Positions 402-5,745 of a stretch of DNA of 16,651 nt are shown piece by piece. The DNA is from Sulfurimonadaceae bacterium (GTDB lineage Bacteria > Campylobacterota > Campylobacteria > Campylobacterales > Sulfurimonadaceae): assembly GCA_041562555.1 (NCBI GenBank), contig JBFEXS010000043.1:1-16651 (forward strand), written 5' to 3'. A model generated the notes under the pieces. The model saw nothing but the letters and a program-made list of their open reading frames with translations, did no database searches and had not been told where the DNA came from. The position numbers and the translations under genes were made by a program. Numbering within the stretch: the first letter of the stretch is position 1; every line of letters starts with the position of its first letter.

Positions 402-434
402 ATGGTAGAGATTATTTAAAATGTAAGAGGAAAT

Positions 435-451
435 TGTAGCGGGAATGTAGC
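435..451 (+). repeat. TGTAGC direct repeat, 11-bp period (candidate integrase arm-type site)
   Basis: TGTAGC at 435-440 and 446-451, about 80 bp from the putative att core. Confidence 0.35.
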
Positions 452-473
452 AGTAAAAATAAACATACATAGT

Positions 474-490
474 AAAACTGTTACAGTTTT
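474..490. repeat. Perfect inverted repeat AAAACTGT-T-ACAGTTTT
   Basis: 8-1-8 palindrome read directly; function unknown. Confidence 0.5.
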
Positions 491-499
491 GTTTTAATT

Positions 500-574
500 C
501 CCTATCTTAGGGGATGCAGCTAACGCCGGCTTATAGCTGTGCCATACTCTATAAAGCCCCTATTTTAGGGACTT
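500..574 (+). mobile_element. Putative att junction of an integrative element targeting the 3' end of rnpB (core ~526-543)
   Basis: CCGGCTTATAGCTGTGCC resembles the conserved RNase P RNA 3' end (E. coli ...AACCCGGCTTATCGG...). No rnpB body (GAGGAAAGTCC) upstream. Flanked by CCCTA-N3-TAGGG at 500-512 and 558-570. Confidence 0.5.
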
Positions 575-742
575 GCATAATTCAATTTTCCTGATTTCAG
601 CCAAGAACAAAACGTGCTCTTTTACAAAGCCTTCGATTTTTCCAAATCAGACAAGTATTCTTAACAACAATGTTTTAATTTTTATTCGCTACTATTAAAA
701 ATATTTTTCATGAAACTAGTGGGGTATATGTAAAGGATATCT

Positions 743-1360
743 GTGGAAAAAATATTGAAATATCTATTGGCATTTATAATTGCATTTATCATATTAGGTG
801 TTATAAATCCTTGGCATGATCAGAAAAAAGTAGGAATCGAGCTTAATATGAGTAAGGAAAGAGCACTTATTACATCATTGAAAAAGCATATTTATGAGCT
901 GTCTCAAAACCGTGAGCCTAATCGTGACCTTAGCCTTGTAGTCTTAGATAACAGAACGATTATTCTACCTTGTTATCAATCAAAGGTATCTGGATATGAT
1001 ACTAATATTACAGCACCGTGTGGGTTTCCAAAACAATTAAGCTTAATAGATGTAAACGGTTCGCTTCGATTAACAAATAATACAGACATACCGAAGAAGT
1101 TGAAACTGGTAGAAAAAAATGGCTCATCTAAACTCATCAATACTCTGTCAGATGGAGCAATGGTCTATGAGCTTGGTCTATTTGAAGACCTTTCCGGGAG
1201 CTCGATAACAAGCCAAGAACTTTCAGATGGCACAGTAAAGATTGTAGGGGCTTATTCAGAATTTACAAATGGTTATTGGCTTTATAATCCAGAAGATGGC
1301 ACGATACTGTATTACGTAAATGGCAAACAAGCTGACTATCCTGATCATTTAAAATACTAA
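743..1360 (+). CDS. Membrane-anchored pilin/pseudopilin-like protein (paralog of 1453..2004)
   Basis: GTG start with AAGGA RBS; N-terminal hydrophobic helix ending in Pro, then amphipathic helix; C-terminal YWLYNPEDG; shared blocks with the convergent ORF. Confidence 0.6.
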   Translation: MEKILKYLLAFIIAFIILGVINPWHDQKKVGIELNMSKERALITSLKKHIYELSQNREPNRDLSLVVLDNRTIILPCYQSKVSGYDTNITAPCGFPKQLSLIDVNGSLRLTNNTDIPKKLKLVEKNGSSKLINTLSDGAMVYELGLFEDLSGSSITSQELSDGTVKIVGAYSEFTNGYWLYNPEDGTILYYVNGKQADYPDHLKY

Positions 1361-1452
1361 GATATATGCTTATATACAGTTATCGAAACCATCTGTTTTA
1401 AAGGTTGGTTGTATGTAATTCTCATATCAACAACACACCTCTTCTTGTTAGT

Positions 1453-2004
1453 TTATTCCCACTCTAGAAATCTACTGATGACACCATTGCGGTAAAAGAT
1501 GACATTACCGTCGGCAGGGTCATATACCCAATGACTGTCGGTATTGATATAACTCTCTATGCTGTTTGATGCAAGTCCGAGTATTTTTACCTTGCCGTTT
1601 TCAAGTGCTTCTGTTTTCCATAATCGAGGTTCTTGAAACGATTCAACAGGTATATACAGACCCAAGGGGTATTGGTTTTCAATGCTTCCATCGGCGTTGT
1701 TTGACAGTTTAAGCGTGCCATGGTTTATGACACTGATCTTTTTTGGAAGTCCATCACAATTGATGGTCATATTATGATTCCCAAATTCAGTGTCTTCTAT
1801 ACTTTTCTGATCTTTACAGACAATGGATAAGAGCTTGATATTGGTACGCAACTCATGTATCACATTCAACTCATAGGCCATCTTGGCATCATCACGAAGA
1901 CCATGTTTATGATTCATTGGCAGCAGTATAGTGACTATCAGGAATATGACAATCAGTATAATCAGCAGTTGCAGGATTCTTTTCACAGTGATTTTTTTGT
2001 TCAT
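1453..2004 (-). CDS. Membrane-anchored pilin/pseudopilin-like protein (paralog of 743..1360)
   Basis: N-terminal TM ending LLP, then RDDAK..E...I..LR..I as in Campylobacterota type IV/T2SS pilin-like proteins; C-terminal WVYDPADG. Confidence 0.6.
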   Translation of the reverse strand: MNKKITVKRILQLLIILIVIFLIVTILLPMNHKHGLRDDAKMAYELNVIHELRTNIKLLSIVCKDQKSIEDTEFGNHNMTINCDGLPKKISVINHGTLKLSNNADGSIENQYPLGLYIPVESFQEPRLWKTEALENGKVKILGLASNSIESYINTDSHWVYDPADGNVIFYRNGVISRFLEWE

Positions 2005-2013
2005 ATGTTATTT

Positions 2014-2199
2014 CTACTTCTTCTCAAACAGTGAGGCAATACCTCCGATGACAACTGCCGCAATTAACCCTATAAGGTAGATAGAAACGACAAAGATGCC
2101 GATGGCTGCTAAAATATTGTGGCCATCATTATAGGCTTGCAATTCTATTACGACTGCAATGATGAGGCCAATAGATATTCCTAAATCATCTGCAGACAT
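2014..2199 (-). CDS. Small hypothetical membrane protein (two TM segments)
   Basis: 61 aa, two hydrophobic stretches, AAGGGGG RBS before ATG, ends 9 nt before the next gene. Confidence 0.7.
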   Translation of the reverse strand: MSADDLGISIGLIIAVVIELQAYNDGHNILAAIGIFVVSIYLIGLIAAVVIGGIASLFEKK

Positions 2200-2342
2200 G
2201 TAAACCCCCTTAGAACATACTTAGGTTATCTGTTAATACCTGATCCCGTTTTGCCTGAACCATTTGTGACCCTTATAACTGATCGTAATCAATGGTTGTG
2301 ACTATTGTATCAAGTGGGATTTTAAGGATTGTTAAACACGAT

Positions 2343-3197
2343 TTAATCGTTGTACATATGTATTCGTTCCTGGATATCTTTCAATCGTTTTACATTCATT
2401 ATATGAAGACAGTCATGAAACTCCTGTATAAATAGTCCGCTGTTTACCGGAAAGACATTCAATATTGCTTCACTATGGCAGTGACTGTCACGGTAGTAAT
2501 GCCAGATGTGCTGTTCATCTTCAATGGCTTTCAGTATTTCGCCTATATGTGTGTTGTGTTCTTCATCCTCAGCGGAGAACTGTTTTTTGATAATTCTGTG
2601 CAGTTCACTGAAGGTTTGTTCAAGTGCCTGTTCAGATGATTTGGCCTTTTGTATACTCTGCTTCTTTACAATATTAAACGGGACAGCAGGTTCTTCTTCA
2701 ATATCTGGTTTCAGCGGTTTAGACTTTCTTTTATTATTGAGAAACTTTCCGTCTTCATAGATCATTACCTGATGGATCGGAGGTCCCGGCCTACCGCGTG
2801 TTCCGGGTGATGGCAGTATGGTAAATACAGTACGTAGAGTTGTTTGACCATTGTTGTCGGGCTCAATTTTGATAAAGCGCGGCGTTCCACGCTCGGGAAG
2901 ATTGAAAGAGCCGATCATCTTCTCGTGTTCAAGGTCAAGAATGTAAACAGTATATTGACTATAGGCCAATGCATATGCATGAAGGGGATGGTGTATGCTC
3001 CTGGCGATCTCAATAGATCGAAAATCTTTATCTTTGAGTGAGAAAGAGCCAAAAACATGCAGCCCTTCAGCAGTATGAAAACCTTTTTCATCCAGTTTGA
3101 TATGGAGGTTGTCTCCCCATTCAATATAGGATGTCTTAACAGGTGCACAAAATAGGTCAGACATCGTTAGCAAGATTAGAAAAATGTTTTTGATCAC
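2343..3197 (-). CDS. Secreted protein with C-terminal LprI (DUF1311) lysozyme-inhibitor-like domain
   Basis: Start moved to GTG 3197 (AAGGAG RBS 6 nt upstream; removes overlap with the upstream gene). Signal-peptide-like MIKNIFLILLTMSDLFCA; C-terminal 'EQHIWHYYRDSHC...SG...HDCLHIMNVKRLKDI' fits the LprI pattern Q..W..YRD..C...C......R...L. Confidence 0.7.
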   Translation of the reverse strand: MIKNIFLILLTMSDLFCAPVKTSYIEWGDNLHIKLDEKGFHTAEGLHVFGSFSLKDKDFRSIEIARSIHHPLHAYALAYSQYTVYILDLEHEKMIGSFNLPERGTPRFIKIEPDNNGQTTLRTVFTILPSPGTRGRPGPPIHQVMIYEDGKFLNNKRKSKPLKPDIEEEPAVPFNIVKKQSIQKAKSSEQALEQTFSELHRIIKKQFSAEDEEHNTHIGEILKAIEDEQHIWHYYRDSHCHSEAILNVFPVNSGLFIQEFHDCLHIMNVKRLKDIQERIHMYND

Positions 3198-3216
3198 GGT
3201 TTTCTCCTTCCCATGT

Positions 3217-4482
3217 TTAAGACTTTTTCCTGTTAATGTGCAGGGCAATATTGGCGACCCGGACGCTTTGGTCATAGGGGATTGTCTCCAGATGCTTGGG
3301 ATCGAGACCATAGCGCGCCATTGCTCCCCTAAGCATCTCTAGTGCATGCCTATTAAAAGATTGTTCATCCAACAGGACAAATCCATGCTCATCGTTGTTT
3401 TTTGAGAGAAGTTTCAAAACATATTCTAGTACATGATCGAAGGTGATCTTTGAAAGAAGTCGTGTTGTTGTCTCATCATCAAAGAGCATCAGCATAAGCA
3501 ATAGTGTGTAGGGTGATGTGTCCTTTACCGTTTTCTGTAAGGGTGTAAGCGGATAGAGCGTGAGCATACGATGGATATTTATCCCCTTGTTCTCTGTCTC
3601 CAGCATCTCTTTGTGTTGTGTTGCACCCATAAGCCTTTGAATGATAGAACCGTCGATGAATAGCTCGATATTGGCGCCATGCGATATGATCTCCTTGCCA
3701 TCTTTAAAACGGTAGTCCTCATCACACATAAGTGAAAACCTGATCTTAATGTGATGGTTTTCAGGCTGAAGTTTCAAATACTCTTTTGCCTGTAAAAGTG
3801 ATATTGGATACGGAGTATTGGGCAAGATATCATCAAAAGCGAGTGAGACCATCTGAAGTATGGTCGCGTAGTAAGGTGTCAGCATGGCATTGTCCAAGAA
3901 GGTAGCGGGTGTATCGGGATAATCAAAACCTGGAATCGTACCTTTTCTTTCAAGGGTACCTTCAAAAAAAGGTGCTTTGATACCGGCAAGTTTTCTTATC
4001 ATGGTCAGTCGAAGCGGGGAGGGTGTCGACAGGAGTACGACCCCGTTATGCGGAGCAAGTTGTGATGCACACTGATAGGAGTGGAAGGAATCATCCATAT
4101 CGTTCATCTTAAGCGCTGTAATGTCAAGAAGCGTGGAGTGTGCAGACAGACCTGTAAACTGTGTGAACTCAAAAGCAAGGGCTTCACTGAGTCTCATTAC
4201 ATGTATACTCAGAACTTCCAGTAAATCATCGGTCAAAACCTTGAGTTTCGGGTCTTCCATCGTGACGATAAAATCATTATTATTAAATCGTACGGTTTCA
4301 CTGTATGCCTCACCACCTTGTACGGCAGAGATATGACTGGCATAATCGGACACTCTGTTTTTGGATTGCATAGGCTTAATATCTTCAGGTTTATAGTCTT
4401 GTGTACTTTTGTTTATGGAAGATAGCATATCATATTGCAGTGAGAAATGATAGTAGTAAGATGTAGATTGAAAGGGTTTCAT
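3217..4482 (-). CDS. Hypothetical protein, possible distant FliM (CheC-fold) plus FliG-middle-like segments; real start may be ATG 4371
   Basis: Long ORF. An extended -10-like TGATATGCT (4424-4432) lies inside the first 37 codons, suggesting start at MQSK (4371). Similarity to FliM/FliG is by eye only. Confidence 0.55.
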   Translation of the reverse strand: MKPFQSTSYYYHFSLQYDMLSSINKSTQDYKPEDIKPMQSKNRVSDYASHISAVQGGEAYSETVRFNNNDFIVTMEDPKLKVLTDDLLEVLSIHVMRLSEALAFEFTQFTGLSAHSTLLDITALKMNDMDDSFHSYQCASQLAPHNGVVLLSTPSPLRLTMIRKLAGIKAPFFEGTLERKGTIPGFDYPDTPATFLDNAMLTPYYATILQMVSLAFDDILPNTPYPISLLQAKEYLKLQPENHHIKIRFSLMCDEDYRFKDGKEIISHGANIELFIDGSIIQRLMGATQHKEMLETENKGINIHRMLTLYPLTPLQKTVKDTSPYTLLLMLMLFDDETTTRLLSKITFDHVLEYVLKLLSKNNDEHGFVLLDEQSFNRHALEMLRGAMARYGLDPKHLETIPYDQSVRVANIALHINRKKS

Positions 4483-5040
4483 GGTTGGATCATATGATTG
4501 AATGTATGCAAACTCTTTTGCTTCAATCTTGTCAAAAGCTCTGAACAGCTGTATCTAGGTCGACATTTTGATAGGGGCTTTTATCACGTCTCTACTAAAA
4601 CGATTAGATTCCAGTTAGTGATAAAGTCAAGGTTTTTAACGTAACAATTCTTTAATAGCAGACGTGTTGGGATTAGGAAAAGTTATTGATCTAAGGCTTA
4701 AGTATGTTGAAATTTTCAGGTTTTTCAGATGTATAGAAAATTCATGAAGGAAATCGTTCCACGACCTTTTCAGTTACCAAAGATGTTCAAAGTGTATCAT
4801 CAAGTACCTCGATTAAGAAAATCCGACTGCAGATGATATTGTTCATTATCAGTATGAATACGAATTTTTAAAAGATATTGATGATACCTGTTTTAGAATC
4901 ATCCTGCCTAAATCGATACACAATCAAGTGTAATATGAGAAGAGTGTCCAATATCCATAACAGGAGTGTTATACGTAAGTAAAGAGTACAGTGTGTACAG
5001 AGCTGCGCATCGGTACAGGCTGTGTTAAGTTTGTTTGTTA

Positions 5041-5745
5041 TTACTGTTTTTCAAATGAAAATCGGTTTCTGAACTCTTTGGCACCGTCTTTGCTTGATTC
5101 TACTTCATCTGAAATACCTTCAAACATAAACCGCAATTTACTTTGTTCTATGGTCTCCATCTCTTTTATCTTATCAATATTGACGAGGTATGAACGGTGT
5201 ACCCGTATGAAATTATAATTTCGCAGCTTTTCTTCAAGGGCGGAAATCTTTTGGGCATAGTAGGAGAAGCCTTTGAGCGTCCGCAGGATAACCTCGGATA
5301 AGTCGGCCTTGACATAAAAAATCTCCTGGGGTTTAAGCAGATAATAGTTATCCCCGTTCTTGCTCAGGATGCGGAGTTCCTCGTCTTGAGTGTTTGGAGT
5401 CTTAATACGTTCAATACTCTGTTTGAGTTGATCAATGCTGAAGGGTTTGACGAGATAAGCGATAGCACCTATATCGAAGGCTTCCAGGGCATGCTCGCTG
5501 TAGGCCGTTTGAAAGACAATTGCCATATCTTCTTGGTGGTAGCGCAATTCATAGGCCAGCTCAAGGCCACTGGTTTGAGGCATATTGATATCCAAGAATG
5601 CGAGATCAAAGCTCTTTTCCTGAATTATTTCAAGTGCCTCTTGTGCACAGCTTGCCTCAACAACCTGGGTGTATCCAAGTGTGTTAAGCATCCGTTTTAA
5701 TCGGGCAAGCCCGAGTTCTTCGTCATCAACGATCAGTATGTTCAT
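5041..5745 (-). CDS. LytTR-family DNA-binding response regulator (AlgR/YpdB-like)
   Basis: REC motifs IVDDE, FLDINMP, FQTAY, YLVKPF; LytTR motif FIRVHRSYLVN. Confidence 0.95.
   Translation of the reverse strand: MNILIVDDEELGLARLKRMLNTLGYTQVVEASCAQEALEIIQEKSFDLAFLDINMPQTSGLELAYELRYHQEDMAIVFQTAYSEHALEAFDIGAIAYLVKPFSIDQLKQSIERIKTPNTQDEELRILSKNGDNYYLLKPQEIFYVKADLSEVILRTLKGFSYYAQKISALEEKLRNYNFIRVHRSYLVNIDKIKEMETIEQSKLRFMFEGISDEVESSKDGAKEFRNRFSFEKQ

Follow-up and report, generated by a model that had tools for sequence, protein, structure and literature searches.

The window analyzed here (16,651 nucleotides) is the whole of contig C43 of a metagenome-assembled genome of a Sulfurimonadaceae bacterium (G000; 137 contigs, 88.9% complete, 42.7% GC), and its sequence also occurs in marine metagenome runs. 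From position 5041 on, it carries chromosomal genes (LytTR regulator, histidine kinase, ferrochelatase and photolyase), and from approximately 5040 it is syntenic with related genomes (71–75% identity). The features identified to the left of this region are listed in Table 1. Elsewhere in the same assembly, the start of contig C28 (1–140) and the end of contig C114 (5800–5945) have the same sequence, and these two contigs probably adjoin.

Table 1. Features of the left part of the window.
Feature	Position	Strand	Description
Gene for a soluble VirD4/TraD-like (T4CP-like, Mad8-like) ATPase, first 113 codons	3–341	−	PF02534, 2.3e-6; cut by the contig end
Putative P arm (element side)	430–525	+	two TGTAGC repeats, AAACTGTTACA, palindrome 500–512; 71–88% identity in relatives
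Inverted repeat CAGCTA/TAGCTG	517–522/534–539 (517–539)	+	read from the sequence; spans the P-arm/core boundary
Putative att core	526–550	+	last 24 nt of rnpB (526–549: end of P4 3′ strand, P1 3′ strand, 3′ tail) plus 1 nt
Presumed truncated P′ arm (stub)	551–596	+	hairpin CCCTA-TTT-TAGGG at 558–570; ends where arm-type repeats should begin
Non-syntenic accessory stretch	597–5040		ORFan genes and a broken Pkinase+AAA_16 remnant
ORFan gene	743–1360	+	
ORFan gene	1453–2004	−	
ORFan gene	2014–2199	−	
ORFan gene	2343–3311	−	
ORFan gene	3217–4482	−	

The truncated T4CP-like gene encodes a Walker A motif (GETGCGKTT), and alignment to full-length homologues (459 and 472 aa) places its start at the ATG at position 341. 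These homologues show weak matches to PF02534 (T4SS-DNA_transf) and TraG-D_C, and match PADLOC mad8 at 2.6e-7 and 2.6e-6; the NCBIfam families score far below their cut-offs. The homologues are soluble, the expected N-terminal membrane part being absent. No PDB relative of a homologue was found by sequence, the profile of the family recovered 0 relatives in viral contigs, and the window's own assembly contains no further part of the gene. In genome G032, the T4CP-like gene is located among ordinary genes.

The accessory stretch has a GC content of 0.39 (vs 0.43), and none of its ORFans matches a Pfam, PHROG, PADLOC or NCBIfam family above noise. For the 421-aa ORFan (3217–4482), a search of 5.8 billion proteins yielded 3 homologues; the protein was assigned to no family, and nothing was found in the protein atlas. 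Its frame overlaps that of the neighboring ORFan (2343–3311, also on the minus strand) by 95 nt, and the downstream frame probably starts later than at its first ATG. A homologue of the 421-aa ORFan (54%) lies 60 nt upstream of a T4CP-like gene, on the same strand, in another genome (G003:C199, locus L047, 147–2131). In the window, the two genes are 2.9 kb apart and on either side of the core. The T4CP-like ATPase and the 421-aa ORFan may constitute a two-gene module that was split.

The remnant near the right edge of the stretch (4704–4930, plus strand) corresponds to the N-terminal part of a Pkinase+AAA_16 gene, with a stop at codon 11 followed by loss of the frame. An intact paralogue is present on another contig of the assembly (C132:76–3597, minus strand) and encodes a 1173-aa protein with Pkinase and AAA_16 (STAND) domains. 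The similarity extends over ~430 nt, including the upstream region (4469–4895; 77% identity). The non-syntenic stretch thus carries, at its right edge, the scar of a deletion or rearrangement.

The rnpB tail and the P arm

The first-pass annotation had singled out a short sequence (CCGGCTTATAGCTGTGCC, 526–543) as a copy of the 3′ end of rnpB, the gene for RNase P RNA (P4 3′ strand and P1 3′ strand), together with a set of repeats and palindromes around it. All of these features can be read from the sequence where they had been placed, and the assignment to rnpB was borne out by comparison with congeners. In a search of 41 genomes, positions 526–550 matched the rnpB 3′ ends of two genomes of the same genus at 25/25 positions (G007, contig C102; G021, contig C67), and positions 527–550 matched that of a third at 24/24 positions (G011:C105), with E ~1e-4 in each case. 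The matches in G007 and G011 overlap the 3′ end of RF00010 hits. The exact 18-mer occurs behind ...AAATACAGAAC in five genomes of the genus (G007, G010, G012, G021 and G022). The Rfam RF00010 alignment of the G022 rnpB ends with ...CCGGCUUAUAGCUGUGCCAUACUU, its terminal part being ...ACAGAACCCGGCUUAUAGCUGUGCCAUACUU, where AUAGCUGUGCCAU closes P1; positions 526–549 therefore correspond to the last 24 nt of the RNA.

No RNase P match (RF00010) was found in the window at the gathering score, nor at E up to 10 within 300–800, which indicates that 526–550 is a fragment of rnpB and not a copy of the gene. The 89%-complete assembly gave no match to RF00010 or RF00011, and rnpB was not found in it. 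A synteny-based search led to contig C4 of the assembly, which contains the 2-oxoacid oxidoreductase genes found next to rnpB in G011 and G022; here, a GGDEF-like gene comes after them, and no rnpB. Since the core is present as a single copy in both the window and the assembly, the existence of a direct-repeat pair is deduced from relatives. Strand exchange must have its place inside this segment of identity (526–550), and comparison at the sequence level indicates that it very probably marks an attachment (att) junction at a displaced rnpB tail.

The DNA to the left of the core is shared with four junctions of other genomes (71–88% identity). Positions 430–549 are 88% identical to contig C63 of G010 (E 5.7e-35), 86% identical to contig C31 of G004 (E 5.3e-31) and 71% identical to the attR of G022 (C5), and another copy of the P arm with the core is present in a 65-kb metagenome contig. 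The conserved parts of these arms are two TGTAGC repeats 11 nt apart and ...CATACATAGTAAAACTGTTACA, followed by the core. To the left of ~430 each copy differs: the window has the T4CP-like gene, G004 a cupin gene, G010 an unknown ORF, G022 lysis genes and the 65-kb metagenome contig tail-fibre genes; other metagenome contigs diverge at 430 and 444 too. A scan with the junction pattern detected only 2 loci in genomes and only 1 in metagenomes, with 0 hits in viral contigs.

The direct repeats of the window (TGTAGC at 435–440 and 446–451, 11 nt apart) form its only exact TGTAGC-N5-TGTAGC (435–451). The same repeats are found in both the P and P′ arms of G022, and TGTGAC variants in G012, G006 and other genera; they are putative arm-type sites, to which an integrase would bind. 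In 61 genomes of the family, TGTAGC-N5-TGTAGC showed no evident excess over a reversed control beyond a recurring 17-mer, which makes up approximately half of the hits (3–4 sites per complete genome). The motif is meaningful only in an att context.

The palindrome AAAACTGT-T-ACAGTTTT (474–490) contains the sequence AAACTGTTACA (475–485), which is its conserved part; the right half is not conserved in related arms, and the symmetry may be incidental. A stretch of 19 nt covering the P-arm motif AGTAAAACTGTTACAGTTT (471–489) is exactly matched elsewhere in the assembly (C121:279–297; E 0.002) by the region around the rpmG stop codon, which precedes tRNA-Trp by 15 nt in a tuf-rpmG-tRNA-Trp-secE-nusG cluster. 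This match may be due to chance, helped by the palindrome.

The inverted repeat CAGCTA/TAGCTG folds no better than shuffled sequences (z −0.6). The pairing ACAGCTA...TAGCTGT is also found in G004 and at a fossil site of G007, and the two halves are candidate core-type integrase binding sites around the crossover region. At the fossil junction (G007:C47, ~4100–4230), the arm repeats are degenerate (GTGTCAC...TGTATC) and the core is decayed (GGCTTATCGCTGGGC), with CAACTGTTACAGTTTT also present; the site and the rnpB of the same genome are on different contigs. MerR genes beside this site and beside the G010 rnpB were considered as an ancestral neighbor and rejected, as they are not homologous.

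Palindromes of the CCCTA-N3-TAGGG type are located on both sides of the core, one as CCCTA-TCT-TAGGG (500–512; center 506) and one as CCCTA-TTT-TAGGG (558–570; center 564). The 2.1-Mb genome contains four such sequences, where an iid model predicts 1.3. The window's pair, 58 nt apart, accounts for two of them, and 3/4 adjoin att or integrase sequences. The third (C68:11759–11772) is situated 28 nt from the contig end, immediately beyond the 3′ terminus of the gene for a P4-type integrase (Arm-DNA-bind_3, Phage_int_M and Phage_integrase domains). This integrase was considered as that of the window's element and rejected, as it is of another, P4-like type and the contig end carries no rnpB core letters; it probably belongs, with its palindrome, to another element at another site.

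When folded as hairpins, the window's palindromes have low stability (−8.6 and −7.2 kcal/mol; z −2.0 and −1.3), and a simple scan called no terminator within 300–800. The hairpin in the attL of relatives separates rnpB from the convergent integrase gene and is followed by a T-rich run. We infer that the element brings this hairpin with it as a terminator; a role as a palindrome bound by a protein is a possible alternative.

Integrases adjacent to rnpB in related genomes

The complete arrangement is present on one contig of G022, in the order rnpB (248 bits), core, hairpin GCCTTGTTTTAGGGC, CTGTAGCGGTATTGTAGCGG, integrase, prophage, CTGTAGCAGAAATGTAGC, AAACTGTTACAA and second core. The integrase is a tyrosine recombinase (PF00589 with Arm-DNA-bind_2) convergent with rnpB. 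The prophage (37 kb) is P2/lambda-like and encodes a CI-like repressor, gpA terminase, lambda-type portal, capsid E, baseplate, tube, holin and M15 peptidase. In G006, rnpB is followed by an integrase 76% identical to that of G022, and G012 has the same attL arm at a contig end.

It had been predicted that rnpB would be found to the left of the junction on the plus strand, ending in the same letters and with an integrase nearby. This was the case in G022 and G006, where rnpB lies on the plus strand, ends with exactly these letters and has the integrase directly behind it. In the window's own assembly, a G022-type integrase was not found by tblastn, and the three integrases present are Xer-like or P4-like and located elsewhere. 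Since the P arm precedes the core on the plus strand, the element, and with it rnpB, would lie to the left of the window's core, in agreement with the original proposal that 526–543 is an att core with the element on its left.

The distribution of this integrase was examined in 151 genomes of the family with the G022 protein as query, and 20 loci were fetched. The integrases of 14 of them are at least 46% identical to that of G022, and in 10 of these 14, from four genera, rnpB lies within 1.5 kb. The remaining four are L089, L090, L097 and L099, the last of which is truncated where its contig ends. A further 6 loci have integrases at 37% identity or less, and rnpB is near none of them. The rnpB-adjacent loci belong to genera g1 (G022 and G006), g33 (G099, G109, G144, G156, G158 and G162), g37 (G110) and g10 (G155). 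In all of them attL consists of the rnpB end, a short hairpin (of CCCTATTTTAGGG type or TCCCTGTACAAGGGA), a pair of TGTGAC-like repeats at 11-nt spacing and the integrase gene. The integrases of the lineage carry Arm-DNA-bind_2, and their nearest counterparts in a phage collection belong to Nitratiruptor phages NrS-1 to NrS-5 (33–34% identity).

Two or three core copies each are present in G022, G099, G156, G158 and G162. In genus g33, core repeats bound islands of 7.0–10.2 kb (G099, G162, G156 and G158); G156 has three core copies, the third of which is located 0.87 kb beyond the island. The P-arm ends of the g33 islands are occupied by (i) RADAR (RdrA, 8e-26; RdrB, 3e-29), (ii) bSEFIR (1e-78) with AbiJ, (iii) an AriA/PtuA-like ATPase with an Mrr nuclease and (iv) NERD nucleases. 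The islands of L118 (G158:C1, 1062–5902) and L119 (G156:C32, 3292–5034) hold a RADAR pair and bSEFIR next to an AbiJ-like gene.

Origin of the right flank and overall reading

For the 46 nt that follow the core (551–596), the best alignments are those to the P′ arms at attL in G006 (z 4.9) and G012 (z 4.1). Their identity to P′ arms is 23–27/46 (50–59%). Scores against the flanks of G002 and G010 are intermediate (z 3.3 and 2.6), and those against the flanks of G007, G011, G021 and G009 and against four attR flanks range from −1.5 to 1.1. The same hairpin is present behind rnpB in the attL of other genera, beside the integrase. A contig of metagenome run X1 matches the window as far as position 596, where the similarity ends exactly, and then reads GTAGCGGAATTGTAGCGGGATTGTAGCGGA, i.e. 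three ATTGTAGCGG arm repeats. On a 628-kb contig of G158, a P arm and core are followed by 49 nt identical to the attL of the same genome, including the hairpin, and then by a gene for an HD-GYP response regulator, with no integrase. The P′ alignment, the repeats of the X1 contig, the stub of G158 and the third core copy of G156 are the grounds for reading 551–596 as a scar left by a previous element of this kind, which we consider fairly likely.

The two-sided, attP-like appearance noted in the first-pass annotation is therefore real, in that 551–596 resembles P′ arms and a metagenome contig continues into arm repeats; the tandem second element proposed with it has no counterpart beyond the 46-nt stub. 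The suggestion that 743–4482 is part of such an element is not supported: this region contains no integrase remnant, second core or arm repeats, and there is one core copy in the window.

Alternatively, the junction could be a plain attR, in which 551–596, with its hairpin, would be the native flank and terminator of rnpB, attP would carry a ~71-nt copy, and no second element would ever have been present. This agrees with the resemblance of the window hairpin (558–570) to ordinary terminator hairpins that occur elsewhere in the genome, and with the result of a profile built from nine P′ arms, in which 552–580 had a non-significant E of 0.93 genome-wide, at rank 4 of the 16 hits listed, the others being ordinary terminator-like hairpins. 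It also agrees with the identity between the two junctions of G158, which spans 49 nt and runs through the hairpin, and with a right side free of integrase remnant, arm repeat and second core. However, integrase-free rnpB flanks vary by species, and those of G007, G011, G021 and G009 have no such hairpin, although the integrase-free flanks of G002 and G010 do score as P′-like. Furthermore, the CCCTATTTTAGGG-type hairpin travels with the integrase across four genera, and G099 and G156, which belong to the genus of G158, share a native flank without it. A plain attR is thus regarded as unlikely. It is still less probable that the contig is an assembly artefact, fusing two molecules across a P arm–core–P′ arm repeat that is multicopy in the community. 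In Logan contigs from four runs of one study, the summed depth is ~88 over 424–517, compared to 11.9 on the left and 5.5 on the right, and this repeat has several alternative left and right flanks. No contig bridges 430–600, which carries no evidential weight since Logan contigs break at every repeat, and the lack of cover to the right of the junction in runs X2–X4 was likewise not counted as evidence. None of the four runs reproduces the window at 364–407 (mismatches at 364–367, 392–393 and 407), and the window and the related contigs G010:C63 and G004:C31 all begin 0.4–0.7 kb to the left of the junction. Against a fusion, separate metagenome contigs confirm both joins, that of the T4CP-like gene with the P arm (1–457, in a contig extending 463 nt further left) and that of the stub with the following DNA (553–1232, i.e. 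stub to 597–1232), and the occurrence of the same P–core–P′ stub architecture on the 628-kb contig of G158 shows that the arrangement is natural.

The palindromes and repeats could also be ascribed to an oriT or operator of a conjugative element, with no att site at all, because the region is rich in inverted and direct repeats and is located directly upstream of a VirD4/TraD-superfamily gene. The same arm is, however, found at the end of a prophage (G022), beside tail-fibre genes (metagenome contig) and beside unrelated genes (G010 and G004), none of them with a T4CP; the ATPase has no N-terminal membrane part and scores below all curated cut-offs; no VirB4 or relaxase was found in the assembly; and the 25-nt identity to rnpB would be left unexplained. 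An oriT or operator is extremely improbable.

The overall reading, an att junction at a displaced rnpB tail with an element on the left and the scar of a P′ stub on the right, is likely as judged from sequence. According to this model, an integrase with an N-terminal arm-binding domain, as expected from its family, would bind the 11-nt-spaced TGTAGC/TGTGAC repeats of the P and P′ arms and the core sites around CAGCTA...TAGCTG, and strand exchange would occur within the 25 nt that attP shares with the 3′ end of rnpB. The rnpB gene would be kept whole at attL because the element supplies a replacement tail and the hairpin, while the original tail would be displaced to attR, i.e. to 526–550 of the window. 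The element would extend to the left of this core, with the integrase, TGTAGCGG repeats, a core and the full rnpB (plus strand) located further left. On the right, an earlier element would have left its 46-nt P′ stub, its arm repeats and integrase having been deleted, so that the junction reads P–core–P′, like an attP. The two-sidedness is probably a scar of serial integration.

By its position, the T4CP-like gene is the element's final gene, occupying the cargo slot beside the P arm, and it would have a cargo role, possibly in defence. Its proposed membership of an element integrated at rnpB is thus upheld by position, while a conjugative function is not, the protein being a soluble ATPase of 460–470 aa below curated cut-offs, with no VirB4 or relaxase found. 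The complete related elements that share this att module comprise a prophage and small defence islands. A wider proposal is that the rnpB tail is, throughout the Sulfurimonadaceae, the dedicated site of one integrase lineage that moves full prophages and 7–10-kb defence islands, that the P-arm slot is an anti-phage hotspot, and that the window ATPase represents a new anti-phage module; taken as a whole, it appears doubtful.

Significance and comparison with known systems

Analysis of the window led to a lineage of integrases that have the rnpB tail as their site in at least four genera of marine sulfur-oxidising Campylobacterota, with a prophage as cargo in one genome and RADAR, bSEFIR and other defence genes in others. 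The rnpB 3′ end is thus a simple marker for mobile and defence DNA in these mostly uncultured bacteria. Integration at this site would also explain why rnpB and its surroundings tend to be absent from their metagenome assemblies.

The gene is hardly documented as an integrase landing site. Within the literature collection searched for integration into rnpB, there was a single relevant report, concerning Clostridium novyi sensu lato, in which, according to extracts of the article, a putative PICI splits rnpB (PMC8473940). A survey of Sulfurimonas phages contains no reference to RNase P in its text and 8 supplementary files (PMC11531552), and the paper on the SNW-1 prophage does not mention it either (PMC11290706). 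The Nitratiruptor phages NrS-1 to NrS-5 are described, in extracts of the corresponding article, as integrating into tRNA-Asn, tRNA-Arg and tRNA-Ser (PMC9723563). As far as the extracts describe it, the C. novyi PICI resembles the present elements in its integration site and defence-type cargo (cas14a and restriction-modification), and differs from them in belonging to an unrelated phylum and to an unrelated, SaPI-like element type (PMC8473940).

Integrative and conjugative elements are recognized by a relaxase and a VirB4-type ATPase that accompany the coupling protein. In the window's assembly, which is incomplete (89%), no match to VirB4 or relaxase families (PF03135, PF03432 and PF08751) was found. 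Serial occupation of an att site (island accretion) is a parallel, given the P arm–core–P′ arm junction, the three cores of G156 and the same stub in G158; it differs in that the window retains a 46-nt stub only, with no second integrase and no third core. A tandem array would show three or more cores bounding two or more elements; the window has a single core and lacks a second set of arm repeats.

Genes for tRNAs and tmRNA are the textbook landing sites of integrases. As in elements inserted at their 3′ ends (att logic of the lambda/P4 type), the core described here copies the 3′ end of a structural RNA gene, which is regenerated at attL, and the integrase, which has an arm-binding domain, lies directly behind the gene and convergent to it, with 11-nt-spaced repeats in both arms. 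Unlike in these elements, the target here is the gene of the RNase P ribozyme.
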